Shown here: positions 6,099 through 58,900 of the stretch, piece by piece | Layout of the letters: the number at the start of each line of letters is the position of its first letter | Position numbering within the stretch: the first letter of the stretch is position 1 | Assembly (NCBI GenBank): GCA_001662655.1 | Contig: KV460291.1 | DNA: 64,000 nt | Source of the DNA: Pseudogymnoascus verrucosus | Lineage: Eukaryota | Reading direction: 5' to 3' (one strand) | Notes under the pieces: model-generated | What the model was told of the DNA's origin: nothing | The model's database searches: none | The model's input: the letters and a program-made list of their open reading frames with translations, nothing else | Program-made: the position numbers and the translations under genes

Positions 6099-7217
6099 AT
6101 GCCTTTAACAGCTCACGCCGTTGATGCGGCCGACGTGCACAAAGCCGTCAAGCTCCTCATCAACAACCTCGTGAACATTACAGACACCACCGGCGAGTTT
6201 CTTCTCCGCCTTCCAGATGGCCGCGTTATCGACACCAAGGGCTGGAACGACTGGGAATGGACGCACGGCGTCGGTCTCTACGGTATCTGGAAGTACTACG
6301 AGCTGACCGGCGAAGAGGAGTACCTCCAGATCATCGAGGCATGGTTCAAGAACCGCTTCGAGGCCGGCGGCACCACCAAGAACATCAACACCATGGCCGT
6401 CTTCCTCACTCTTGCCTACGTCTACGAGAAAACCGGCAACCCAATTTACCTCCCATGGCTCGACGCCTGGGCTGAGTGGGCATACCATGATCTCCCCCGC
6501 ACTGAGTTCGGTGGCATGCAACACATGACATATCTCGGTCCCAACACCCAGCAGCTCTGGGACGACACTCTGATGATGACCGTCCTACCTCTCGCTAAAA
6601 TCGGAAAAGTCCTCAACAGGCCACACTACGTGGACGAGGCGACGCGCCAGTTCCTCATCCACATCAAATACCTCTTTGACACGAAGACGGGGCTCTGGTT
6701 CCACGGCTGGACCTTCGAGGATGGCGGCCACAACTTCGCGGAGGCGCTGTGGGCGAGAGGGAATGCCTGGATCACGATTGTGATCCCGGAGTACATTGAG
6801 CTGCTTGATCTGCCACATGGAGACCCGATCCGCACGCACTTACTAGATACCCTGGTTGCACAGAGCGTGGCGATCAAGAAGGTGCAGACACCTGGGGGTC
6901 TATGGTGCACGCTGTTGAGCGAGGGGGAGGATACTGGGTCATACTTGGAGGCGAGTGCGTCGGCTGGGTTTGCATATGGACTCATGAAGGCAAGGAGGAA
7001 GAGATACATTGGAGGAGAGTATGAGGAGGTTGCTGTCAAGGCCGTCAAGGCCGTCATAGAGAATATTGATGAGGACGGAGAGCTGAAGAATGTGTCGTTT
7101 GGCACTGGGATGGGAGATACGCTGCAGCACTATAAGGATATCCCGCTCACGAGCATGCCGTACGGACAGGCGATGGCGATTATGGCACTGGGAGAGTGGT
7201 TGAGGGTATACATTTAG
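6099..7217 (+). CDS. GH105 unsaturated rhamnogalacturonyl hydrolase (YteR/YesR-like), intronless, no signal peptide
   Basis: Motifs WEWTHGVGLYG, QLWDDTLMM, TGLWFHGW, WARGNAW, YLEASASAGFAYG and YGQAM; strong C-ending codon bias. Confidence 0.88.
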   Translation: MPLTAHAVDAADVHKAVKLLINNLVNITDTTGEFLLRLPDGRVIDTKGWNDWEWTHGVGLYGIWKYYELTGEEEYLQIIEAWFKNRFEAGGTTKNINTMAVFLTLAYVYEKTGNPIYLPWLDAWAEWAYHDLPRTEFGGMQHMTYLGPNTQQLWDDTLMMTVLPLAKIGKVLNRPHYVDEATRQFLIHIKYLFDTKTGLWFHGWTFEDGGHNFAEALWARGNAWITIVIPEYIELLDLPHGDPIRTHLLDTLVAQSVAIKKVQTPGGLWCTLLSEGEDTGSYLEASASAGFAYGLMKARRKRYIGGEYEEVAVKAVKAVIENIDEDGELKNVSFGTGMGDTLQHYKDIPLTSMPYGQAMAIMALGEWLRVYI

Positions 7218-13111: not shown

Positions 13112-13582
13112 TCATCCACATCTACATCTATATCCGCACCCACGCCCCATTCTTCTCGGCTCCGCAATGCAGATCTCCGCGCATGTCATCGCTAATATAG
13201 ATATAATCATTTTGAAGTCATGAGTTCCATGATAGAACGCAATCATCTCGGCCGTCATGATAAAAATACTGCACATAAATAGAGTAATCGCAAAGACCAT
13301 GGTCGCAATAATTCTGATGGATCCTGCTTCATTTGCGACACTCTTAAGAAATTGTAAAAACTTTTTGGCTCTTGTTTGTATGCTGTTGTCCAGATATCGA
13401 GGTGGGCCAGAAGAGAGATCTTGGCCTATAGTATCCTGATTCCCGTCGTCCACAGCTTCGGGATGCTCGCTGGCGTCGTCTGAAAGTTCAGAGATATCAA
13501 TTCTTGTCTTCGAGATATTCATTTCCATATCGGCGAGGAGTTGTGGTAATGGAAGGTATGGATAGATAGGTAGTTTTGGCAC
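13112..13582 (-). CDS. Hypothetical membrane protein, divergent from the cassette array
   Basis: 156-aa ORF starting at GTG (first ATG gives MEMNISK). Acidic N-terminus followed by two hydrophobic segments. No family recognised. Confidence 0.35.
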   Translation of the reverse strand: MPKLPIYPYLPLPQLLADMEMNISKTRIDISELSDDASEHPEAVDDGNQDTIGQDLSSGPPRYLDNSIQTRAKKFLQFLKSVANEAGSIRIIATMVFAITLFMCSIFIMTAEMIAFYHGTHDFKMIISILAMTCAEICIAEPRRMGRGCGYRCRCG

Positions 13583-13843
13583 GTTAGAAAATATTCGAGA
13601 AGGGAGGGAGCTTAAGTCGCAAGATGTATCGTATGATGATGATGATCATGTTGCCGGATAGCTTCATTTATCATTAGACCACGCAATTTCGAGCTAGCTA
13701 TCACACTTGGTCCTTCCGTTCTTGGATATGAAACTAAGTCACCACTTACCCACCTTCTATCTGAACTACCTCCTGCCACAGTATACCTCCAAAAAAATCG
13801 CTACCATGATTTCCCATCTCTCAGACACCCACAGAGAATAGCA

Positions 13844-14154
13844 ATGCATAACGTCGAAGCCACCAATAACAACCATGAACCCACCATGCGCCGAGCCTCA
13901 CCATCAACCTACAGGCACAAACTCACCTAAACAGCCCCGATCCCGCCACAGAAGCGTCCTCCCATCAGCTGGTTGGATTCCCTAAAGCAGCTCCACGCAA
14001 AGTTAAGCGCGTTCTTCCTGATCTTCGCTGAAACACTAGGGTTAATATGTTCGGCATATTGCTCGTGTCCGCAATGGCGCTCTTCGTCGTTTGGGGGCTT
14101 ATGGTTTTAGCGGGGTCTTTGCTGCTCGATGGGCTGAAGGCATGCGTCCGTTGA
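13844..14154 (+). pseudogene. Array cassette 1, frameshifted
   Basis: MHNVEA start, then PPQKRPPISWLDSLKQLHAKL in another frame, then MFGILLVSAMALFVVWGLMVLAGSLLLDGLKACVR* after a further frameshift. Confidence 0.7.
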
Positions 14155-14404
14155 TCGAAAGGAGGAGGGTGTTGCCCGACGCGCTTGGGGAACACGGCAC
14201 GGAGAGACAAACACCTGTTAGGAAAGTACGGGATGGGCGATAGTAGGAAAAAAGGAGAAACGTACGATGATAATGAAACCGCTTCTATGACTACTCTTAT
14301 ACATGAATACAAGCCACCGCACCCCCCACCTTCCATAAAAACCACCCATTACGATAATTTCCCCTACGCATATCCTCAACTCAAAATCCACCATTTCTAT
14401 ATTC

Positions 14405-14734
14405 TTGACGACAGCAACACCCGCTCAAAATAACAATGCACAACACCGAAGCCAACCCCCTCCTATCCAAACCTCCCCAGCGAGACACGCAACTCCCCGA
14501 GCCTACCCCGTGCCGCAGCTACCCAAAATGCCGCCTATTAGTCGCCTGGAGAAACTCAAGAAGCTTGACGCAACTTTAAAGGCATATACCCCAGTACTCA
14601 TGGAGCTATTCGGCTTCGTGCTTGGCACAATAGGGTTGGTAACGGTCGCATTGGTTGCCTTGGGGGTGGCGGTGGGGCTGCTGGGACTTGTGTTGCACGT
14701 ACTGATCCTGGGGGCGAAGGCAGTTTTTCATTAA
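14405..14734 (+). CDS. Array cassette 2 small membrane protein (likely start ATG 14528; ancestral MHNTEA ATG at 14436 is out of frame)
   Basis: MPPISRLEKLKKLDATLKAYTPVLMELFGF followed by a ~35-aa hydrophobic stretch and GAKAVFH*. Confidence 0.7.
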   Translation: MTTATPAQNNNAQHRSQPPPIQTSPARHATPRAYPVPQLPKMPPISRLEKLKKLDATLKAYTPVLMELFGFVLGTIGLVTVALVALGVAVGLLGLVLHVLILGAKAVFH

Positions 14735-15021
14735 TCAAATGGTAGAGGGTTGCCCAACGGATCAAGGAGCGCAGAGATGAACAGTTGTCTAGAAACAGAG
14801 AAGCGACCGATAATTTAAAAGTAGTACAATAGTACGACCATGTGCCCCTAGATCATGCCGCTTCCAACTATCACCTCATTTCTTGCTTTCTAGGAAATGA
14901 ATACAGACTACCGCCTTCCACCTCCTAGCACAATATATATTCCCATCCATAGTCCAAGATAAAAAACCACCACCTCCAACTCCTAGACGACATCGACCTA
15001 CCACCCAGAAATAAAACAGCA

Positions 15022-15364
15022 ATGCATGACCTCGAATCCGCTATGCACAACTCTAATACCTAGTCTAACTCGTCTCCCCCTCTCTACCCACCAATGCCAA
15101 GGTCGGCCCAAACTTCTCCAGCCAGCAGCACACCAATGATGCCACCCTCGCGTCAGAAATCTTAGATCAGCCGCCTGAATAACTCAAGAGCAGCTCAACA
15201 AAACTTTGAGCGAGTACAGCCCAGAGCTGGAGGATCTGGCCGGACACGTGGTCCACACGTTGATGATATGTCTTGGGGTGATAGTTGCAGTTGTAGTTGC
15301 GATGGAATTGATTGGCGGATTATTGTATCTATTTTTCCTAGGGGTGAAGGCGATTTTCTTTTGA
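15022..15364 (+). pseudogene. Array cassette 3, two in-frame TAG stops plus a frameshift
   Basis: MHDLESAMHNSNT*(15061)..PPLYPP..RQKS*(15163)ISRL, then a frameshift to QLNKTLSEYSPEL..LICLGVIVAVVVA..LFFLGVKAIFF*. Confidence 0.75.
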
Positions 15365-15626
15365 TGTAAGTGAAGGTTAGTTCCTTGTGCGCTCTGAATT
15401 TTAGAAAAGGATGGGGCAGTCGATAGTCGGAAGGAAGAAATATCGTATGATCATTATGCTCCTTTAGACCATGCCGCTTCTAGCTATCACCTCATTCCTT
15501 CCCTTCCTAGAAATGAATATAAAGAATTACACCACCTACTTCTTGTCCAAACCACCACGTACCAATGATAATTATTACTAGTACAATGCTAAGAAGAAAT
15601 ACTCAAGCATCCTGAACGTTATCAAA

Positions 15627-15977
15627 ATGCATCACCTTGAAACAGCAATGAATAACCTCGAAATGGCAATGAGTAACCTCGAAGCAGCAATTGATAACTT
15701 CGAAACAGCAAAACACAACTCTGGGGTCCAACTCCCCTCGCCTTTTTCTTCCTACCCAGAGGCAAGCTACACGTACCACAGCACTCAAACGAACCCCCCT
15801 CCTTTACAGGGGACTCCTGATATCTCAATGAGATTCAAGCAATATGACGCATTTTTTGGCGGGTACGGCCCAGACCTCGGATTTGAGATTGGAGTGATAG
15901 CATTCTGGACGAGCAGGCTGGTTGTTGTAGGATTGGTGGTAGTGTTGGTGTGGAATGTGTTGTACTTGTTATTTTAG
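15627..15977 (+). CDS. Array cassette 4 small membrane protein with N-terminal heptad duplication
   Basis: MHHLETA-MNNLEMA-MSNLEAA-IDNFETA 21-bp repeats; HSTQT; YGP; hydrophobic C-terminus. The usual LGAKAI ending is frameshifted off. Confidence 0.65.
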   Translation: MHHLETAMNNLEMAMSNLEAAIDNFETAKHNSGVQLPSPFSSYPEASYTYHSTQTNPPPLQGTPDISMRFKQYDAFFGGYGPDLGFEIGVIAFWTSRLVVVGLVVVLVWNVLYLLF

Positions 15978-16280
15978 GAGCGAAGGCCATTTCCTGTGAT
16001 CGAAGGCGGGGTCAGCACCTCATGCGCTCTAGGTGCATGAAGTTAAACAGTTGTCGGGAAGGGATGAAGAGTGTGACATTATCATACGACGATTATATGC
16101 CCTTGGGCGATGTGGCTTCTAGATATGATCTCATTCGTTCCTTTCTTAAAAATATAAACCATCACACTTCCCACAACTCTTCACCACCTCCTATCACGAT
16201 AACTATACCAATCCACATCGCACACCGCCCCAAATAAACACACACAAACCCAAACCGTCAAACGCCACCAACCTCCCAAA

Positions 16281-16526
16281 ATGGCCCTACCAAAGCTCGA
16301 AACCGCATCCATCGCCCCTCGACCACCCCCAACCCTCCTGGAGAAACTCAGCCGCCTTGACGCAAGCTTTCAGACATACGGCCCCATCCTCGTGAGATGC
16401 TTTGAATTCATAACGCTCACATCTTTGGGGGCGCTGGCGATAATAGCCCTGGTTACTGCCTTACTAGGAGGCATAGGACTTGCGTTATTCTTGTTGGTTC
16501 AGGGCGTAAAGCTGGTTCTCACTTAA
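16281..16526 (+). CDS. Array cassette 5 small membrane protein
   Basis: caaaATG context; MALPKLETAS..PPTLLEKLSRLDASFQTYGP, hydrophobic stretch, GVKLVLT*. Confidence 0.75.
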   Translation: MALPKLETASIAPRPPPTLLEKLSRLDASFQTYGPILVRCFEFITLTSLGALAIIALVTALLGGIGLALFLLVQGVKLVLT

Positions 16527-16793
16527 TCGAAGGAGGAGATGTTGCCCGATGGGTCCTTGAGGACGTGGAGATATGGACAGCTTTTATGAAGGGGGGGACT
16601 AGGTGATATGAGAAGCGGTATCGTACGAAGTTAATTCCAGGTCGGACCATGTTGCTTTTATCACCTCATTATTTCCGTTCTTAGAAATGAATATAAACCA
16701 CCACACTACCCATCACTCTACTTTCAAACCCCCACCTCGAAAAATAATCATCACGCCTACAGTAAAGTCTCAAAACACCAACGAACCCACAAA

Positions 16794-16988
16794 ATGGCAC
16801 TTCCAAGGCTTGAAACCGCATCCATCGCGCCCCGGCCCCCCGCCCTACAGAACATCTTCGTATTCGTGCTTGGCGCGTCACTGGCGACGGTGGTAATGGT
16901 AGGCGCGGTACCGCTGGTGCTATTTAGCGTAGGAGCGGCGTTGTTCGCGTTGTACCAGGGGGGGAAGACAGCTATGGAGAACTCATAG
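16794..16988 (+). CDS. Array cassette 6 small membrane protein, internally deleted
   Basis: MALPRLETASIAPRPP is nearly identical to cassette 5. The LEKL helix is missing and the hydrophobic tail is kept. Confidence 0.6.
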   Translation: MALPRLETASIAPRPPALQNIFVFVLGASLATVVMVGAVPLVLFSVGAALFALYQGGKTAMENS

Positions 16989-17294
16989 CTGTCTTCATCT
17001 CCTAGACTGGTAGCTGCAGCTTGCTCGGTGAAAGGTTTCCGGGCATGGAGGGACTAATGATTCTCGGAAAAGATGGGGGTTGGGGTGTCAAAGGAAGTAG
17101 CATCATACGACCACTCCGGAACGTACGACTTCTAGTTATCACCTCACTCTTTCCTTTCCTGGAAATAAATATAAGGAACCACACTACCCACGTCCACTCC
17201 CACTACCTCCGCCAGAATAACCTTATTACCGCCTTTAAACTAAAAATCCACAACACCAAACATCCAAACACCGCAGTGTCCAAAAACCAGAAAA

Positions 17295-17624
17295 ATGCAC
17301 ACCCCAAAAACCGCCGCGCACAATTTCAAGCCCCCCCCTTCCGTACTTCCACCACCATGCCCACCTCCCTGCTTGTTATGCCGCAAAACCCCGCCCGCCC
17401 CAGCAGAGCCCGCCACCAGTCTGCTCGTAAAACTTGAGCGCCTCGAGGAAACACTAAAGGCGTATGGGCCGGTCTGTGTAAGACTATTCGAACTGGGGTT
17501 GCACGCGGGGTTAATGGTGATCTTGGGGACGGTGATGGCGACGCTCGTGGTGTTAACTGTGGGGGGTGCATCGGCCCTGTTGCTGTGCCTGTTGGTTGAG
17601 GGATTGAAGGCTATTATGGGCTGA
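17295..17624 (+). CDS. Array cassette 7 small membrane protein
   Basis: MHTPKTAAHN, Pro-rich stretch, SLLVKLERLEETLKAYGPVCVRLFEL, hydrophobic stretch, GLKAIMG*. Confidence 0.75.
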   Translation: MHTPKTAAHNFKPPPSVLPPPCPPPCLLCRKTPPAPAEPATSLLVKLERLEETLKAYGPVCVRLFELGLHAGLMVILGTVMATLVVLTVGGASALLLCLLVEGLKAIMG

Positions 17625-17789
17625 TCGGAAGACGGAGGAAGAAGGAAGGGGTATCGTATGAGGATTATGTGTCGTCAGATCAGACATCACCTCATTCTTT
17701 CCCTACCTAGAAATCAATATAAGCCACCACCATATCACGCAACCCATCTCCTACAACTACCAATTACCACCACCAAACAAAAAACAAAC

Positions 17790-17950
17790 CACAACGCCAA
17801 AACACCAGTCTGTGTAAGACTATTCGAATTCGTGATGGATAAATTGTATCTATTTATCTCGGGGTTGGCAACGGGGGCGGCCGTGGGACTAGTCGTGGTG
17901 GCGGTGGTGGTCCTGTCGGTTCAAGGGTGGAAGTTGGTTAGGGGTTATCG
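17790..17950 (+). pseudogene. Array cassette 8, 5'-deleted and stop codon lost
   Basis: PVCVRLFEF matches cassette 7 at the DNA level (gtctgtgtaagactattcgaa). No ATG at the expected position. The usual TRA-TCGAA ending reads TTA-TCGAA. Confidence 0.65.
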
Positions 17951-18158
17951 AAAGAGGGACGAGGAAGGGGTGCTGTATGAGGATTGTCAGTACTCGAACC
18001 ATGTGTCGTCGCAGCAGGAATCACCTCATTCCCCCCTCTCCCGGGAATGAATATAAAGAACCATCGCACCACACAGCTCTCCTCCCACCACCACCGCCTA
18101 CCACGAACCGCAAGCGCACCACCCCCAACCTCTCAACCTACCATCAAACCCATCAAAT

Positions 18159-18461
18159 ATGGCCCCTCCAAAGCTTGAAACAGATTCCCTTGCGGCACTA
18201 TCTCTTAAATACGCCAAACCAGTCAAACCCGTCAAACCTGTCAAACGCACAAAACCCCCCCTCACCGTCCTCGAGAAACGAGAGCGCCTGGAGAGAACTC
18301 TGAAATTGTACTCGCCTGTCTGTGAAAAGCTATTTGTATTCGTGGTTTGCGGGTCGCTTATGTTGATCACCGCGTTGATGGTGGTGTCGCTCTTGGTGTT
18401 TTGCATTTGGGTTGCAGTGTATTTCTTGTCGAGGGGGTGGCGATGGCCGTGGTCTGGTTAA
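18159..18461 (+). CDS. Array cassette 9 small membrane protein
   Basis: MAPPKLETDS, (KPV)3, PPLTVLEKRERLERTLKLYSPVCEKLF, hydrophobic stretch, GWRW. Confidence 0.75.
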   Translation: MAPPKLETDSLAALSLKYAKPVKPVKPVKRTKPPLTVLEKRERLERTLKLYSPVCEKLFVFVVCGSLMLITALMVVSLLVFCIWVAVYFLSRGWRWPWSG

Positions 18462-18685
18462 AGGGGGGGTAAAGGGGAGGGTATCGTATGAGGATTATGT
18501 CTCGTCAACAGACCATGTGTTAGAGTATTAGTTATCGCCCCATTCCTTCTGTTCCTGGAAATAGATATAAATCACCACACCACCGACTTGTTCTTACAAC
18601 CTCCTTAAAAATACCACTCACTATCCCAAAATCCGCCACTTCCCTCTGAACTCTCAAATACAACCAACCCGATAAACAAGCTACA

Positions 18686-18994
18686 ATGCACAACCCTCCA
18701 GCCACCACCGGCACTCAACCCCTCGCACCTCCTCCCTACCAACTATCATCTCGCCAGACGCATAGCCGCGGGACCCAAACCGACTCCCCTCTACCACAAG
18801 CAGCCCCTCGCAAACGCCCCACCACCCTCCTAGAAAAAATAAATTTGTGCAACAACATACTGGATGAGTACCTTCCGGCCTTAATGGAACTTATGATGCG
18901 CACAATGGTTGGGCTCTTGATGCTGGCGTTTGCGGCCATTCCGCTTGTGATCGCGTTTATGGCGGTGTTCGGGTTTGGGGCGTGGAGGAGATGA
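18686..18994 (+). CDS. Array cassette 10 small membrane protein
   Basis: MHNPPATTGTQPLAPPPY..RGTQTD..PTTLLEKINLCNNILDEYLP, hydrophobic stretch, GAWRR*. Confidence 0.75.
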   Translation: MHNPPATTGTQPLAPPPYQLSSRQTHSRGTQTDSPLPQAAPRKRPTTLLEKINLCNNILDEYLPALMELMMRTMVGLLMLAFAAIPLVIAFMAVFGFGAWRR

Positions 18995-19379
18995 GGCGGT
19001 GGGTAGTATGGAGTCTGTGATTGTTTGGTTCTAGGGTGGAAGGTGGTCGTGGGGTGATGGAAAAGGGGGGGGAGGGGGGGTGTCGTACGAGGGTTCGGCG
19101 TCCTCGAACCACGCGCCGAAGGAGTAGCTAGATATCTCCTCATTATTCCCTTTCATAGAACTGATAAGTGATAATTAACCACCCACCCATATCACCAACT
19201 TCTTCTTCTTCCTACCTCCACTACAAATACCCATTACCAACACACCCCAAACCCACCACTTCCATCTATCCAACGCCAACCAGCAGCCCTCATAAATAAC
19301 GCACCAGTGAATCCCCCAACCGCCCTCTACAACTCCTCCGCCCAATACCCCGCCCCTACACCCCTCTTAAACAAGCACA

Positions 19380-19770
19380 ATGATCAACCCCTCTGCAACC
19401 ACCAGTGCCCAACTCCCCCCACCTCCTCCTTACGACTCACGTTCTCCCTACAACCCACATCCTCAATACAGCCCACGTCCTCCCTACAACCCACATCCTC
19501 CCTACAACTCACGTCCTCCCTCCAACCGACCTCCTCCCCACAACCCATCACCCCACAAAACGCACCAAGGCACCCAACCCAGCCCCTGCATCTGCATCTA
19601 CACCGCACCCGCGCCCTCTCTCGCGCCACCCCCCCCTTCACTTTTCTCCAAAACCCCAAGAAGAAGAAGAAGCTCGACTGCTGTTGCCCGGATTTACTCT
19701 TGTCCTCATCGTGCTGCTGATTGGGAGGATGGTTTTCACTGCTGTTTGGTGTGGTTTGGGGAAGGGGTGA
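19380..19770 (+). pseudogene. Array cassette 11, frameshifted, with internal 18-bp repeats
   Basis: MINPSATTSAQLPPPPPY followed by PYNPHP/PYNSRP repeats and THQGTQP. The helix (PPFTFLQ..KL) and the hydrophobic tail (LLLPGFTLVLIVLLIGRMVFTAVWCGLGKG*) lie in other frames. Confidence 0.65.
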
Positions 19771-19976
19771 GGTGGGATGGGGGTATCGTATGAGGATTGT
19801 GGATGGACTGATTAGGGGTATCACCTCATTATTTCCTTGCTTAGAAAGGGATATATAGATAGAACTATGCAACCCCCATCTCTGAACCCATCACCACCTA
19901 CCTACAACCCAAAATCCAGCACCCTCCCTCTAGACTCTCAAAAATCCAACAAACAACGCCCTTCAACCCACCAAAA

Positions 19977-20315
19977 ATGCACAGCCCCTCGACCATCACC
20001 ACCACCACCACCGGCGCCCAACCCACGCCTCCTCCCTCCCACCCACCATTCCGCCAAACACATCAAGGCACCCAAACCACCCCCTCTGCCTTTACCCGCC
20101 CACCCCCCCCTCCTCCCACACCAACCCCCATCCCAAAGCCCCCCTCCACCACCTTACCTGAAAAACTCCAGAAGGTCGATGCGAACCTCAAGGAGCTCGC
20201 CCCGGTCGTGGGGAGTATATTGGAGACGCTATCTCCTGTGATGGAGGTTGGGTTTATGGCGCTGATGGCGGGGGGGTTTTTTGCGCTTGTTTGGTATGGG
20301 ATTCGGCTAGGGTGA
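19977..20315 (+). CDS. Array cassette 12 small membrane protein
   Basis: MHSPST..TGAQPTPPP..RQTHQGTQT..TTLPEKLQKVDANLKELAP, hydrophobic stretch, GIRLG*. Confidence 0.75.
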   Translation: MHSPSTITTTTTGAQPTPPPSHPPFRQTHQGTQTTPSAFTRPPPPPPTPTPIPKPPSTTLPEKLQKVDANLKELAPVVGSILETLSPVMEVGFMALMAGGFFALVWYGIRLG

Positions 20316-20545
20316 GGTGGAGGGGTGGTATGAGAGTTGTGTTGTTGTGAGGATTGTGGGTGTCGTATGAGGATTAGCTGGAGTCGGATCAGGGGGGTAT
20401 CACCTCATTATTTCCTTTCTTAGAAAAAGGATATAAACAACCATACCACCACATACTTTTCTAAACCAATCACCACCCACCAATCCCAAACCCAGCACCT
20501 CGAACCTCTCAAACACCACCAACCCCTTAACCACCAAAACCAAAA

Positions 20546-20870
20546 ATGCACAACCCCTCAACCACCACGGGCGCCCAACCCCTCCCACCACCTCAGCAGA
20601 CACACCGAGGCACACAAACCCTCCCCATCTCCGCCCAACCCTCTCCTCCTCCCCCCTGCGCCCCTACAAAACCTCCCCCCCCCCCCAACCCGCCTCGAGA
20701 AACTCGAGGCCCTCCACAGAACTCTCGAACAGTACGTGATGGTGGGCATGGACTTTGGGTTCCTCGCATTCTGCGCGATGACGATGGGGTTCATGATGTT
20801 GTTGGTGGTGGGGGCGTTTGTGGTGGGGCCTGTTGTGGTGGGGTGGAGGGCTTGGAGGGGGGAGTCGTGA
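20546..20870 (+). pseudogene. Array cassette 13, frameshift at a C12 run (or a sequencing error)
   Basis: MHNPSTTTGAQPLPPP..THRGTQT. After the poly-C at 20675-20686 another frame gives TRLEKLEALHRTLEQYV..FLAFCAMTMGFMMLLVVGAFVVGPVVVGWRAWRGES*. Confidence 0.7.
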
Positions 20871-22192
20871 TGGTGGGTGGGTGGGTGGTTGCTTGAGTGA
20901 TGGGGATGCGTGGAGGGTGATGGGTAAGAGTCTTATTTTTCAAGATTTATGAATGCGGAAAAGGAGATTAATGACCTTCCCCGACCGTAGGGCGAAAATG
21001 CGTAGCCGTCGCATCCAAAGACGGAGTGCTCGTCCACGATATCGACTAAGTCTGCTAGACCGGGAATTTTGTGTTGGATTTGAGCAGGGAACTCCGCTGC
21101 CATGTTTGTATACTAGTTCGCACTATCCGATCTATGTTAAATGAAAAACTAAGGACTTTGAAATCACGCAAGTCTTTGTTTAACAGCAGGTTACTAGTAG
21201 AATTGATTAATGCTACAGTCGCTAGATAACTTGATTGTGGTGCATAATATGAAGACACTACAGGACTTCGAATGCGCAATGTTAACGGGGCTGCTGCTAT
21301 ACACGCGTTAACATCATATGTCCTCTTGCTAGTGAAAGTCGTACGTAGGCATAGAGTAGATTCTAAAGTTCTTCTTCATTGTTTATAGCATAACTTCGTA
21401 TAACATTCTCTTAGGAAAGGGGGGGGGATAGCTTCACTAATTGAGCGAGCGTCATTAGCAACTACTCTACGAACGAGAACTGTATCTTTGAAGCGTTAAA
21501 GGCGACTAAGGAAGGTGTGCTGAAGTCTAGAGATGTCAAGGCTCTGGATTCACTTAAGGCTCACCTTGAGGCTGACACGTCGATCAGCAAGTTGGGCTGC
21601 TGACAAGGCCTGGCTGGATGCCTTGTTCGTTTCACCAGTTGAGGAAAACCGCACCAACAAAGGGGGCGCTAATGTTAACTTTGTTAATTCTTGTTTGCGT
21701 GGGAAATGATGAGGGAAGTTGGGGGGGGGGACTGTAGGTTAGAAGTAGATTAAGTGATTACAGCATTTTCTCTCATCACTGAATAAAAACGAAAGACATG
21801 CAAAAACACGGCAATTGAAGAAAGGTCTTAATATTATCTCTCCCAACCCCATCTAAGATTCCCTCACCCGCTCATGAACGAGTTACATGGACATCCCATC
21901 TCTCAAAAGCATGCAATGCGGCCGAAACGCAAAACGCAATGCAGTAGCAGGTACCTCGCGATCTCTCTTCCTCTCTATCCTTCCTTCCTCGTGAATCACC
22001 CTCTCAGGGAGACACGGCAGCAAACTTTAAAAAAAGAAAAGCTTTCACTTCCAATCTTGTTTTTCTTCTCAACGCCCTAAAATTCCCAAAAACACAAATA
22101 TCAAAAGCCATGGACATCAAGACATTAACAACTACCACTCAAAATCCCTTAAAATAGGAAAACAATGCGACCACGTCTCTAAAACACGGCGC

Positions 22193-55924: not shown

Positions 55925-58900
55925 CTATTCGCTGTCTGAAATAACAATCGGCTCTTTGCTTGCCCAGCCGTCATCCGGTTTGGTATCTTTCATTTCAACA
56001 TCATCATCGAACCCCTCAAACTCATCACTATCGCCAGGATCTACTGCTGGAAACGTTTCTTCGCCATTTGCTGCTTTTTCAGATTCCCATTGGGCGTAGA
56101 GAGCATTGAAAAGCTCCTTTCCAAGAGCCCTTCCGTGTTGCAGAGAGACAGCATTGCCAATCTGCTTGTACATGGCACTTGGAGGCTGGGTGTTGGGATC
56201 CCATGTAAACGTGTCCAGAAACCCTTGGGCCCTGGCAAACTCTCTGACCGTAAGAATTCGGCGTTGGGTTGGATGTAAGATCTGCAATAATTATATTAGT
56301 CCGCTGAAAGTACGGGATCAACCAGTTAAGGATTGTATTTACCTTGCCATTCTCGCCGCCTGGGTCAACGTTTGTCAGGCAAGTCTGAAATTGCTCTTTA
56401 AAGTCCAACCGATAATAGCGATTCGGGTAGAAGTTACTCTTTGAAGCTCTTTTATTACGCAAGCATGCCATATCGTGCTCAAGGGGCAAATCGTTATGGT
56501 TTGCTTGCGGTCTCATTGGAATACGGGCGAGCCGCAACATTGTCTGAGAGCCCCATTGGCGAGTAACGTGGTTCTTGACAATATCCCCCTTGACATAACG
56601 GCGTACTTCTCGTTGAAATTCTGCAATCGGTCCATAGGCGTACACAGCTCTGTTATCCCCAATTGGCGCCTTTCCATCTGAAGGCACCTCAATTGTTGGT
56701 ATCCCCAATTCCCGTTGGCGTCGAGCTTGACGGTCTTCGCCAGGCACTTTAATTCTCCAATCAAAAGCTGGCAAGTCGAAAATTGCATCTCCAACTGTGA
56801 CTGGATTATGAGGCGCAGTTCTTCCCATGGTGAACGTATTGGTTGGAGCTGAAAGACCTTTGCAAACATGGGTTGGCTGCGGATATAAAGGCAATTTACG
56901 GCCCAACAAGGCACCCCAGAAAAATACTCGTCGCCGGGATTGGGGCGCGCCATGTTCTGCGGCTTGCAGCATATGAAACTGAGCTGAGTAACCCAGAGAT
57001 GTAAGTGCTCGGAGAATGAACTTCACGCTACCTTGTTGGATGCCCCCCTGGACACCGGGGCCGGACTTTTTCTGGGTACTACCCAGTCGATGTTGTAGTA
57101 GCCCACGGACATTCTCCAGCAGGAAGTATTTCGGTCCATAGTGGTCCACATAGGATAAGAATGTCGTCAGTAATGAATTCTTGATCGAATTTGCCTTGGG
57201 ACATCGATTGCACCCTGAGAAATCCTGGCAAGGTGGACCACCGTACAAGAAGTCACTGGGAAATGTTAGAAACATCTCCTCTGGCAATAATACATATCGA
57301 CCCCCTCTAGGTTACTGGTAACTCACATATCGCCACGTTTGGGCATAGGGGGCATCGGCTTTCCCTGGAGGTCTTTCATGACGCCAGTTGCTGTTCCTCG
57401 TTCTTCCTGGATAGCTCTCTGTAGCAACGTGTTCGCATTCTCATTGTATACTTTCATACGTGGAAAGTTTCTCTTGAGAGTTCGACTGGCATCGATATCC
57501 CATTCAATGCCGTAAAGTGTCTCCACAGCGCCACCTTCATGCAGCCCAGAAGAGAGGCCGCCACAACCGGCAAACACATCCATCGCTCGGAGCTTGAGGC
57601 CAGCTTTTGAGAATGCCTCCTGTCGCTTCTCCTCCGTTCCAACCATTACGTTTCCGTCGACGGAATCATGAAAATCCTCAGCATTAAGCGGCTGAAGGTC
57701 TTCGATATCAAATGCTCTTCTCGTCGTTGTTCCATCGAAACAATCAGGCTCTCTGTCGGTCACATAGAATGTATCTTCCAGGTCCTTATATTTCGCGAGA
57801 TTATTAACTCTGCTTGGATGCACAACTTGGCACTTTCCAAGCAGCTTATCGTCGACGTCGATCGTTTTCCTCCTATTAGTGAGATACAGTCTGCGACTGT
57901 CCCGAATGGCGTGTTTTTCGCCACTCTTGAATTCAGTCCGATAATCGCTGTTGAAGTCATCATACCTTCTGAGTATCTGTATGGTGATATGGATACCTTG
58001 CACTGAGTCTCGAAGTTTAGAAGGATCTTTCACAGCCCAATTAAATCCCCCTGTGCATTTGATGTGAATGATTTGACCGATCGTATGAGGCTCGTCGGAC
58101 GCCCTTGGGAGCATATAGACACAATCATTGAGCTTGTATTCAATACCGTCGTGTGAGAAGCTGGTTGCTGAGCGGTCTTCGTCGATTGTGCCTGTTACCC
58201 TCGTAGAGAGCTCATGTTGTATCTCTTCGCGTCTGGCGCAGCAGAAGCAAAGTTGAGAGTGCTCTGTGCCTGCAAGCTTGATATTTTCTTCGTGGAAACT
58301 AGCATCTTCAAATCTTACGGGCGTGGTTTCGTCATCATCATAGAAGAATCGATAGAAATAGCAGTTTGGCTTCTTAAAATGGTCGCTTTCTTCTGAAGGA
58401 CCAATTTGAGTGCATCTCTCCACATTTACTTTGCCAGCAATTGTGCTCTGTAAGGTTATCAGTGGGGTCCACGAATATACACGTGCCCTCTGAAAAACTC
58501 ACCATATCAATATCATCGCAGCGGTCGAGTAGGAATAGCTCTTTTGGGCCGGCAGTTTCATCAAGAAATGTGTCACCTCCATGAGAAAACCATCGGACAT
58601 GAGCCATGGGGTCCCCACTCTTATTGGCGAATATGTTGACAATTCGTGCAAACCAGACCCTCGCAGCTGTCTCCTTAATATTCTGTTTCAGTTTGCCGTT
58701 GGCAGTGAGGTGATCTCGATCATCAATCCCTGCACTGTTTGAGACTTAACAACCATATTGACCTGCCGAGAGGAAGTATATCTTACCGCACCGTAATACA
58801 ATCCCCGGGGAGAAACCGATCTTTGTCAATGAAAGCAGCTCCATAAAACTTCGATAGTTTCTTGTCAACCCACTTAACTGGGGGTATCAGCTCGACTTTG

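Follow-up and report, generated by a model that had tools for sequence, protein, structure and literature searches.

Tandemly amplified arrays of a small gene in which every repeat has its own promoter are exemplified by yeast CUP1, whose repeats are nearly identical. The array described here resembles CUP1 in its head-to-tail units, each with a putative promoter and a short ORF, and in a copy number that shifts between strains by unequal homologous recombination, run X15 having one unit more. It differs from CUP1 in the divergence of the encoded proteins, which are 23-40% identical to one another (protein alignment) against 0.70-0.77 for the putative promoter core, and in that about half of its units are pseudogenes.

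The attC sites of bacterial integrons are likewise short repeated elements between small ORFs, and the consensus of the element in the array shares with them an imperfect inverted repeat, unpaired bases and a variable middle. Here, however, the chromosome is eukaryotic and the pairing is not conserved. The cassettes of attC arrays are unrelated and mostly promoterless, whereas those of this array are paralogues, about 10 of 13 with a TATA box; no integrase (tyrosine recombinase) was found in the 42 window ORFs scanned, and the copy-number change did not occur at an element.

At the level of single sites, a TTCN3GAA palindrome, perfect in 7 of the 13 element copies, is of the same form as the GAS sites of metazoan STAT factors; STATs are not known from fungi. 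Papers listed under TTCNNNGAA concern animal STAT factors. The heat-shock element TTCnnGAA has a spacer of 2 nt, as opposed to 3 in the array palindrome.

Layout of the array and its repeated element

The window (the whole 64-kb stretch of DNA that was analysed), which is fungal (Pseudogymnoascus), contains 13 head-to-tail units, each of 334-686 bp, that span 13624..20960 on the + strand (repeat search and unit alignment). The repeat that the initial annotation had placed at 15440..20450 was confirmed, and the array reaches further on both sides. All 13 units are paralogues along their whole length (unit alignment) and have the order element, TATA-like box, C/A-rich leader, small ORF and G-rich 3′ spacer. 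The 13 copies of the element are in register, with a spacing of 334-686 bp (repeat search):

13624..13745, + strand, copy 1: decayed, without TATA and with an extra 24-nt insert; held-out profile match
14258..14320, + strand, copy 2: most decayed, without TATA, missed by the profile
14832..14912, + strand, copy 3: TATA changed to ATACAG
15438..15528, + strand, copy 4: top profile score; TTCCTAGAA palindrome; ATATAA at 15517
16077..16162, + strand, copy 5: box A has ATACGA; half of the palindrome lost; ATATAA at 16152
16616..16702, + strand, copy 6: TTCTTAGAA palindrome; ATATAA at 16691
17099..17180, + strand, copy 7: 2 of 6 stem pairs; TTCCTGGAA palindrome; ATATAA at 17169; intact ORF downstream
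17649..17728, + strand, copy 8: full stem; ATATAA at 17717; coding part downstream 5′-truncated
17968..18062, + strand, copy 9: full stem; ATATAA at 18051
18479..18576, + strand, copy 10: TTCCTGGAA palindrome; ATATAA at 18565
19078..19176, + strand, copy 11: TATA lost; ORF downstream broken
19781..19862, + strand, copy 12: full stem; TATATA at 19852
20358..20442, + strand, copy 13: full stem; TTCTTAGAA palindrome; ATATAA at 20431

A conserved repeat of about 90 bp had been claimed from inspection, and matches to it were indeed far above chance. With up to 3 mismatches allowed, GTATCGTATGAGGATT matched 9 times against 0.53 expected, a count reached by none of 100 shuffles, and 8 of the 9 matches were in the array and on the + strand. 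With up to 2 mismatches, TTCNNNGAAATNNATATAA gave 8 matches against 0.39 expected, 7 of them within the array. A profile built from 11 copies, whose scores are mostly those of its training copies, recovered these 11 with E values between 1e-15 and 1e-21; it also recovered the copy at 13626, which had been held out, with an E value of 3.7e-5. Searched against the whole 64 kb, the profile returned nothing beyond those 12 copies at E<1, and the most decayed copy (14258) was missed. Within the 64-kb window the element was found on the + strand only, in the array only and always 5′ of a gene, and the five example coordinates given initially were all correct.

The element comprises three boxes, A (TCGTAYGAGGAT), B (GAYCATG, a weaker motif) and C (TATCACCTCATT), followed 3′ of box C by the TTCN3GAA palindrome and then by an ATATAAA TATA box. 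Spacing is fixed among box C, the palindrome and the TATA box, and box A lies at a variable distance of 30-71 bp on the upstream side of box C. In addition to the seven perfect palindromes, four copies carry one mismatch (by eye, element alignment). The half-sites are kept while the centre varies (CTA, TTA, CTG, TAG, ATA), as would be expected of a site bound by a dimer. The second motif reported for the array, stop-TCGAARGG, has three exact occurrences, at 14152, 15997 and 16524, and two that are one mismatch off, at 17622 and 17945, but over the whole window its 17 matches are not above chance (14.7 expected).

The protein encoded by the array ORFs is rich in proline and has a membrane anchor at its C terminus. 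The family proteins matched no family in Pfam, and none of the relatives among the database hits was tied to an NCBI-annotated protein. The coding parts of the units are as follows:

13845..14154, + strand: broken copy; N-terminal frame without a listed ORF of at least 40 aa, membrane-anchor part downstream in the unit alignment
14436..14734, + strand: broken copy; a frameshift separates 47-aa N-terminal and 68-aa C-terminal ORFs
15023..15364, + strand: broken copy; spanned by no ORF of at least 40 aa
15627..15977, + strand: intact family ORF, 116 aa; relatives P0023 and P0024
16281..16526, + strand: intact family ORF, 81 aa; relative P0026
16794..16988, + strand: short family ORF, 64 aa, a fusion of two adjacent paralogues; relatives P0020, P0022 and P0025
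17295..17624, + strand: intact family ORF, 109 aa; P0017 98% and P0019 87% identical
18159..18461, + strand: intact family ORF, 100 aa; relative P0016
18686..18994, + strand: intact family ORF, 102 aa, with a PPPY motif; relative P0018
19380..19793, + strand: broken copy, or one that has diverged strongly, with six repeats of 18 bp; it has lost the helix region, and its membrane anchor is out of frame
19977..20315, + strand: intact family ORF, 112 aa (ORF list, protein alignment)
20546..20896, + strand: frameshifted copy, the shift in or near a C run and the C-terminal part in frame from 20739; this frameshift may be an assembly error

The 42 flanking ORFs of the window (Pfam scan) are ordinary eukaryotic genes, and proteins in many Pseudogymnoascus genomes match the neighbouring GH88 ORF at full identity or at 90% or more. 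Run X1, the only one guessed to be RNA, covers the neighbouring PEPCK gene and not the array.

Position of the element relative to the flanking genes

The element is best read as a promoter with several putative factor sites that was passed on in tandem duplications and maintained by selection. Specifically, it is probably the compact proximal promoter carried by every gene of a family for small membrane proteins, a family that has been duplicated in tandem and is restricted to its lineage. Of the duplicated promoter with a dimeric site proposed in the initial annotation, the promoter fits the 5′ position, the single strand, the TATA distance, the conservation and the co-decay of the element, and the bulged repeat as dimer site was not sustained.

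A TATA-like box (ATATAA or TATATA) is present in about 10 of 13 units. The distance from ATATAA to the ATG, previously estimated at about 105-130 bp, was 103-129 bp in all 9 units having both; ATATAA is also retained in unit 17686, which has lost its ATG, and is absent in four units (13701, 14276, 14870 and 19134). The leaders contain 2-11% G and are ATG-free in 7 of 9, and units that retain an ATG have an A at position -3 relative to it (by eye, unit alignment).

One alternative, quite unlikely, is a short spliceosomal intron, located in a 5′ UTR or else in a precursor that is polycistronic or arises by read-through. Its 5′ splice site would be GTAYGA, its body the variable stretch, its branch site CTCAT, its polypyrimidine tract the pyrimidine run, and its 3′ splice site the YAG of TTCYTAG. 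The layout and size of the element (about 60-95 nt) do resemble a fungal intron, judged by typical intron features; 11 of 13 copies have GTAYGA, with T or C at the fourth position, and CTCAT is followed by a run rich in pyrimidines. The GT...AG boundaries, however, are not retained in all functional copies. The copies at 16077 and 17099, both upstream of intact ORFs, have ATACGA and not GT, and just 7 of 13 copies show an aligned AG, which is lacking upstream of the four intact ORFs 16281, 17295, 18159 and 18686, where TTCN3GAA is kept (CTGGAA, CCGGGAA). Conservation also extends well past the splice signals, to 12 nt of box C and to GAAATGAATATAAA beyond the proposed 3′ site. A spliced transcript would still contain AAATGAATATAAA, whose conserved ATG would be an upstream start codon, and the stretch upstream of the element, which would then be needed as the promoter, is poorly conserved (0.49). 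No skipping joint appeared in the array, to which no RNA contig aligned.

It is quite unlikely that the element mainly signals the 3′ end (polyadenylation or termination) of the gene before it, or that it combines a terminator with a promoter. Because it starts only 27-130 bp past the upstream stop codon, it must overlap the 3′-end region of the upstream gene, which leaves some room for a dual role, and upstream transcripts must end in or near it; its TATG- and AATATAAA-like strings resemble the efficiency and positioning elements of yeast. However, the distance to the upstream stop is variable whereas that to the downstream ATG is constant. Moreover, no family gene precedes the first element (13624) at the 5′ end of the array and no element follows the last array gene, and the element thus belongs to the 5′ side of the unit, as the flank of its own gene and not the 3′ flank of its neighbour. 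Loss of TATA also tracked the downstream ORF. All four TATA-less units have a broken downstream ORF and none of the seven intact-ORF units lacks TATA (Fisher p = 0.021, which overstates independence because the 13 units share ancestry and three of the four TATA-less units adjoin at the left end), whereas the equivalent test against breakage of the upstream ORF gave p = 0.36.

Conservation of the core

The core was defined as TATCACCTCATT to TATAAA, corresponding to 41-44 columns of the whole-unit alignment. Mean pairwise identity of the core was 0.70 in all 13 units and 0.77 in the 8 live units. Elsewhere in the same units it was 0.51-0.54 in the leader, 0.51-0.52 in the N-terminal coding part, 0.51-0.52 in the helix and 0.43 in the membrane anchor, and the top window of equal size outside the core, box A plus loop, reached 0.58. 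No other part of the unit is conserved as well as the core (0.70-0.77 for the core against 0.43-0.54 in the rest of the unit). Fourteen columns of the element are at least 90% invariant, and variation recurs at the same columns in many copies; no two copies have identical cores (core identity at most 0.93). The shared variable columns and the lack of an identical pair fit motif constraint and not recent homogenisation.

These data bear on the possibility, which we regard as very unlikely, that the element is functionless and its copies are alike through short gene-conversion tracts or recent duplications. Unequal recombination does happen in the array, and the four perfect-stem copies with the most similar box A are all in its right half, which suggests shared recent ancestry. 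With the flanks of the core at 0.43-0.54, however, conversion would have to strike the same 45-90 bp in every unit while sparing the flanks, differences between cores fall at the same few columns, and the element is decayed in units with dead ORFs.

If the element is a promoter, one or a few sequence-specific factors would occupy the palindrome and boxes A to C, and the bound factors would bring TBP/TFIID to the TATA box. No box could be attributed to a known fungal factor. Transcripts would begin downstream of TATA, in the G-poor, C/A-rich tract, and each would be a monocistronic mRNA whose 5′ UTR measures roughly 50-90 nt. Since each unit bears the same module, the array would be co-regulated. 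We infer these start sites, the factor binding and the co-regulation from the sequence. If correct, the promoter reading would supply a fungal genus that has been little studied with a compact cis-regulatory module, about 90 bp long and ready for use, and would point to a whole family of small membrane-protein genes. A promoter better kept than its proteins suggests tight co-regulation of fast-evolving products, and would be a lead toward the regulator of the family and its inducing condition. General concepts would be unchanged, as tandem gene families with inherited promoters are common.

Transcript processing, base pairing and related loci

Transcription of the array as one or a few long precursors, in which GTAYGA...CTCAT...Y-tract...YAG would be spliced or cut to give separate messages, is likewise very improbable and was weakened by the sequence tests. 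If true, the element would be the processing signal of a polycistronic fungal transcript for rapidly diversifying orphan membrane-anchored proteins.

The initial annotation had further proposed an ATGAGG/CCTCAT stem. The consensus is indeed complementary and holds an imperfect inverted repeat of 6+2 bp on the two sides of a variable loop, but the 6 core pairs are complete in just 4 of 13 copies, and the G-C pair of columns 14/90 is broken in 7 of 13. None of 8 pairs showed any compensatory change. Paired cells amounted to 80.6% against 81.2% in shuffles, and 500 of 500 shuffles reached the observed value. RNAalifold predicted no consensus pair in the element, folding z-scores were no better than shuffled in all 9 copies folded (-0.89 to +1.40), and the proposed stem appeared in the minimum-energy fold of 3 of these 9. 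The element therefore has no conserved hairpin. The covariance models of Rfam 15 matched none of the elements; two chance-level matches at 16951-17014 (E 0.23 and 0.74) were far below the gathering scores. As the arms of the bulged repeat are 30-71 bp apart, vary independently and show no compensatory change, a dimeric factor site formed by them is not supported; the TTCN3GAA palindrome by the TATA box would be the better candidate.

One unit is deleted in the window, at the 16794..16988 ORF, relative to runs X15 and X16. An attC-like recombination site parting mobile cassettes, or a structured RNA-processing hairpin, had also been suggested and is barely credible: beyond the inverted repeat of the consensus there is neither conserved structure nor an Rfam match in the element, the cassettes are paralogues with TATA boxes and putative promoters of their own in a eukaryotic genome, the 42 ORFs scanned in Pfam include no recombinase (as initially observed) and no transposase, and the breakpoint of the missing unit (16837-16840) is within coding sequence and not in the element.

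Indirectly, in translation, the element was also recognised beyond the window, in other genomes. Four over-extended ORFs on other contigs (P0029, P0035, P0049 and P0019) contain the same peptide strings as the elements of the window, for example ITSFLPFLEMNINHH, and in these protein translations the element-derived peptides sit directly upstream of family genes. A fifth extension, that of P0051, had no match in the array. P0035 was 65% identical to 15407-15526 over 40 residues.

Architecture and conservation of the repeated element

The array comprises 13 units arranged head-to-tail on the + strand from 13624 to approximately 20960, with a spacing of 334-686 bp. Each unit carried, in order, an element of approximately 90 bp, a TATA-like box, a leader, an ATG, a small ORF and a G-rich spacer. 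The leader was 100-125 nt long, C/A-rich and poor in G (2-11%), and the length of the 3′ spacer ranged from 27 to 130 nt. Seven ORFs of the array were intact, and the other six units were broken by stops, frameshifts or truncation.

Intact family ORFs of the array
15627-15977, +, intact family ORF
16281-16526, +, intact family ORF
16794-16988, +, intact family ORF of 64 aa
17295-17624, +, intact family ORF
18159-18461, +, intact family ORF
18686-18994, +, intact family ORF with PPPY
19977-20315, +, intact family ORF

The initial annotation gave the coordinates and consensus of the element correctly, and its two motifs were strongly over-represented (9 matches where 0.53 were expected, and 8 where 0.39 were). 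The range it assigned (15440-20450) does contain the repeat, but the array is larger, extending over 13624-20960. From 5′ to 3′ the element contains box A (with GTAYGA), box B (GAYCATG), box C (with TATCACC), a TTCN3GAA palindrome and an ATATAAA box. Between box C and the TATA box the length was constant except for one additional base in the last copy, and box A floated 30-71 bp 5′ of box C. In the alignment, inspected by eye, the palindrome was perfect in 7 of the 13 copies and had one mismatch in another 4, and its centre varied freely; the string CATTCY was present in some copies only. A profile trained on 11 copies, from which the copy at 13626 was kept out, recovered that copy and missed the most decayed one (14258); beyond the array copies it found nothing at E<1 in the 64-kb window.

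Conservation was measured as mean pairwise identity on a MAFFT alignment of the 13 entire units. The core from TATCACC to TATAAA had an identity of 0.70 across all units and 0.77 across the eight with live or nearly live ORFs, and box A had 0.63. Identity was 0.51-0.54 in the leader, 0.43-0.52 in the coding sequence and 0.49-0.52 in the 3′ spacer, and the highest-scoring window of the same length outside the core (0.58) was box A plus the loop. Within the element, 14 columns were at least 90% invariant, and its variable columns recurred across many copies. The element clearly exceeds the surrounding coding and flanking DNA in conservation, a comparison on which the initial annotation had staked its reading.

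Two other accounts of these sequences were rejected. Repeat-induced point mutation as a source of the divergence was discarded on dinucleotide indices that were near the whole-window values (TpA/ApT, 0.82 in the array and 0.73 in the window; (CpA+TpG)/(ApC+GpT), 1.14 and 1.23). Because the open frames within the element differ between copies (ITSFLPF... in one, YHLIPS... in another), they were regarded as chance and the element as non-coding.

The second motif of the 3′ flank, a stop followed by TCGAARGG, was present after several ORFs as annotated, exactly at 14152, 15997 and 16524 and with one mismatch at 17622 and 17945. It occupied the equivalent place in 5 of 8 left units and in 0 of 5 right units and was not enriched over the whole window (17 occurrences, 14.7 expected); it looks like leftover paralogy of the 3′ flank.

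Assignment of the element to the downstream gene

Both ends of the array, the spacing to the ATG and the pattern of decay bear on which gene the element serves. No family gene lies upstream of the first element, where the nearest ORF (13112-13528) is on the other strand, and the last gene of the array is followed by its G-rich spacer without an element. In all nine units with both features the TATA box precedes the ATG by 103-129 bp, in agreement with the initial placement of ATATAA, whereas the distance from the element to the upstream stop varies widely. The downstream ORF was broken in all four TATA-less units (13701, 14276, 14870 and 19134), and none of the seven units with an intact ORF lacked a TATA box (Fisher p = 0.021, a value that is indicative only, the units not being independent); for the state of the upstream ORF, p was 0.36. 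Because of the array ends, the constant distance to the ATG and this co-decay, the element is placed 5′ of the gene it accompanies, as a promoter would be. The proposal of a duplicated promoter is thereby supported to the extent that sequence can show, through the motif architecture, phasing, position and orientation of the element, its conservation and its decay alongside the gene.

Under a promoter model, sequence-specific factors would recognise box A, box C and the TTCN3GAA palindrome, TBP would join them at ATATAAA, and transcription would start within the C/A-rich tract, each unit yielding its own mRNA under regulation common to the family. A palindrome with a freely varying centre is as expected of a dimer site. 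TTCN3GAA is the type of site used by animal STATs; the TATC cores in boxes A and C could serve GATA factors, and CATTCY is a candidate TEA/AbaA-type site. Literature searches at the level of listings and opening lines of abstracts turned up nothing on the element, the gene family or TTCNNNGAA in fungi, and the matches to motif strings were primers or unrelated sequences. Sequencing run X1, guessed to be RNA, gave coverage of the PEPCK gene, where it showed a spliced intron; it left 13652-22099 uncovered and is uninformative on expression of the array.

The element was also encountered in other genomes, where the ORF calls of several database relatives over-extend upstream and so translate it. 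In relative P0029, ITSFLPFLEMNINHH immediately precedes the MALPKL start; the extension of P0035, ISYDPYGPLDHAASNYHLIPSFHSNKYKE, shares 65% identity with translated 15407-15526 across 40 residues; and those of P0049 and P0019 likewise translate the element. A fifth extension compared with the array, that of P0051, did not match. As read from these translations, the element holds the same place in genomes with family proteins of different 50% clusters. Metagenome scans gave 0 loci for a degenerate DNA motif and, for relative P0024, 130 pattern matches of which 0 were confirmed.

The proposed stem and rival functions

The initial annotation had built its dimeric site on a bulged inverted repeat of eight pairs (ATGAGG/CCTCAT, a 2-nt bulge, then AT/AT). 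No conserved stem was found, leaving that form of the site unsupported. Two-sided changes occurred in 0 of the 8 pairs, and the stem cells were paired in 80.6% of cases, compared with 81.2% in shuffles, with 500 of 500 shuffles reaching the observed value. Seven of 13 copies break the G-C pair at alignment columns 14/90, owing to variation in the 5′ arm against a constant 3′ arm. RNAalifold predicted no consensus pairing for the element alignment, and none of nine copies folded singly was stabler than its shuffles (z -0.89 to +1.40), the stem forming part of the minimum-energy fold in only three of them. All six core pairs were complete in 4 of 13 copies, each of them in the right-hand half of the array; the elements preceding the intact genes at 15627, 16281 and 17295 had only 4, 4 and 2 of the six. 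An Rfam search gave no relevant match. The arms are best regarded as two distinct boxes with ATGAGG in common, by chance and in opposite orientation.

The most serious rival to the promoter is a short intron, whose layout the element resembles in having GTAYGA, a variable body, CTCAT, a pyrimidine run and YAG. However, AT replaces GT in two copies preceding intact genes, and AG is missing in six copies, four of them preceding intact genes and retaining the TTCN3GAA symmetry. Conservation moreover reaches far past the splice signals, a conserved upstream ATG would remain after splicing, and the stretch that would then be needed for a promoter is poorly conserved. Formation of the 3′ end of the upstream gene, whose stop lies very close to the element, is possible as a second function; as the main role it is opposed by the end-of-array and co-decay tests. 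Gene conversion alone might keep the copies alike, but leaves unexplained why the tract retained spans only 45-90 bp and why dead units decay. The attC-like site offered as an alternative in the initial annotation fails each defining feature tested. As a promoter, the element would be ordinary in kind, the gene family that it accompanies being unannotated and lineage-specific.

The gene family, its genomic setting and strain variation

The family proteins, mutually 23-40% identical, start with MHNxE or MALPKLE and continue with a proline-rich stretch, a helix (LLEKLxxLDxxLKxYxPV), a C-terminal hydrophobic segment and a short tail. A word-indexed search returned 10 relatives and an exhaustive profile search 31 representatives at 50% identity, at least two of them (2678 aa and 311 aa) being likely spurious. 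In all 29 representatives examined the C-terminus carried a strongly hydrophobic stretch, and C-terminal membrane anchoring is predicted for the family. PPPY was located near the N-terminus in 8 of the 29 (P0018, P0028, P0030, P0034, P0039, P0040, P0049 and P0052) and, in the array, in 18686-18994 and 19380-19793; the PPxY motif of small membrane proteins recruits Rsp5/Nedd4-type ubiquitin ligases. Pfam searches with four window proteins and nine family representatives gave only sub-threshold chance matches (Avr2, PRA1, CCDC53, PRIMA1), and the ESM Atlas gave no cluster match, the best score (0.77) being below a meaningful level. All relatives came from Logan, ENA or JGI contigs. None of the 31 representatives had NCBI annotation as its source, whereas the neighbouring GH88 gene was found in at least 14 annotated Pseudogymnoascus genomes. 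These proteins appear to form a genuine, unannotated family restricted to the lineage. The frameshift of the last family ORF in the array (20640-20700) lies in or near a C run and may be a sequencing or assembly error, in which case this unit would not be a true pseudogene.

By window ORFs and Pfam, the array has ordinary eukaryotic neighbours. The window encodes AATF/Che1, GH88, two polysaccharide lyases of family 4, an ATP-dependent PEPCK, dynamin, asparaginase, an M20 peptidase, a BAH-containing cytosine methyltransferase, MED7 and a proteasome subunit. Because of these genes, and because the GH88 ORF (372 aa, 6099-7217) belongs to a cluster at 90% identity in which every named member is from a Pseudogymnoascus species, the window is assigned to the chromosomal DNA of a Pseudogymnoascus fungus (Leotiomycetes). 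At 56079-58423 (- strand), one ORF encodes BAH together with the beginning of a C-5 cytosine methyltransferase domain, the remainder of which is encoded by the adjacent ORF; the pair is probably a single DNA methyltransferase gene split by an intron.

Seventeen sequencing runs were listed, each with fewer than half of the sequence words, and four of them (X1, X15, X16 and X17) were compared with the window. Runs X15, X16 and X17 behaved as DNA of related strains. A 9771-nt X15 contig spanned the entire array at about 2-3% differences and held approximately 626 extra letters at 16837-16840, equal to one additional unit. At the same position a loose end in X16 read into the missing gene at its helix motif; this matches relative P0022, and the window's 64-aa ORF (16794-16988) matches P0025 and the tail of P0020. 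On the strength of the additional unit in X15 and X16 and these three matches, the 64-aa ORF is taken as a fusion of two adjacent paralogues, the window having lost one unit by recombination between adjacent coding sequences and not at the element. Array copy number accordingly differs from strain to strain through unequal recombination within the coding sequence.

Two further differences were observed. A broken family copy contains six tandem 18-bp repeats at 19418-19561, encoding a proline/tyrosine-rich hexapeptide run, and X15 lacked 54 bp at 19459-19514, equal to three repeats fewer. Just 3′ of the array, a 308-bp segment (21290-21597) had the opposite orientation in the X15 and X16 contigs. 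No long inverted repeat was found flanking this segment; GGGCTGCTG was located near both of its ends in direct orientation.
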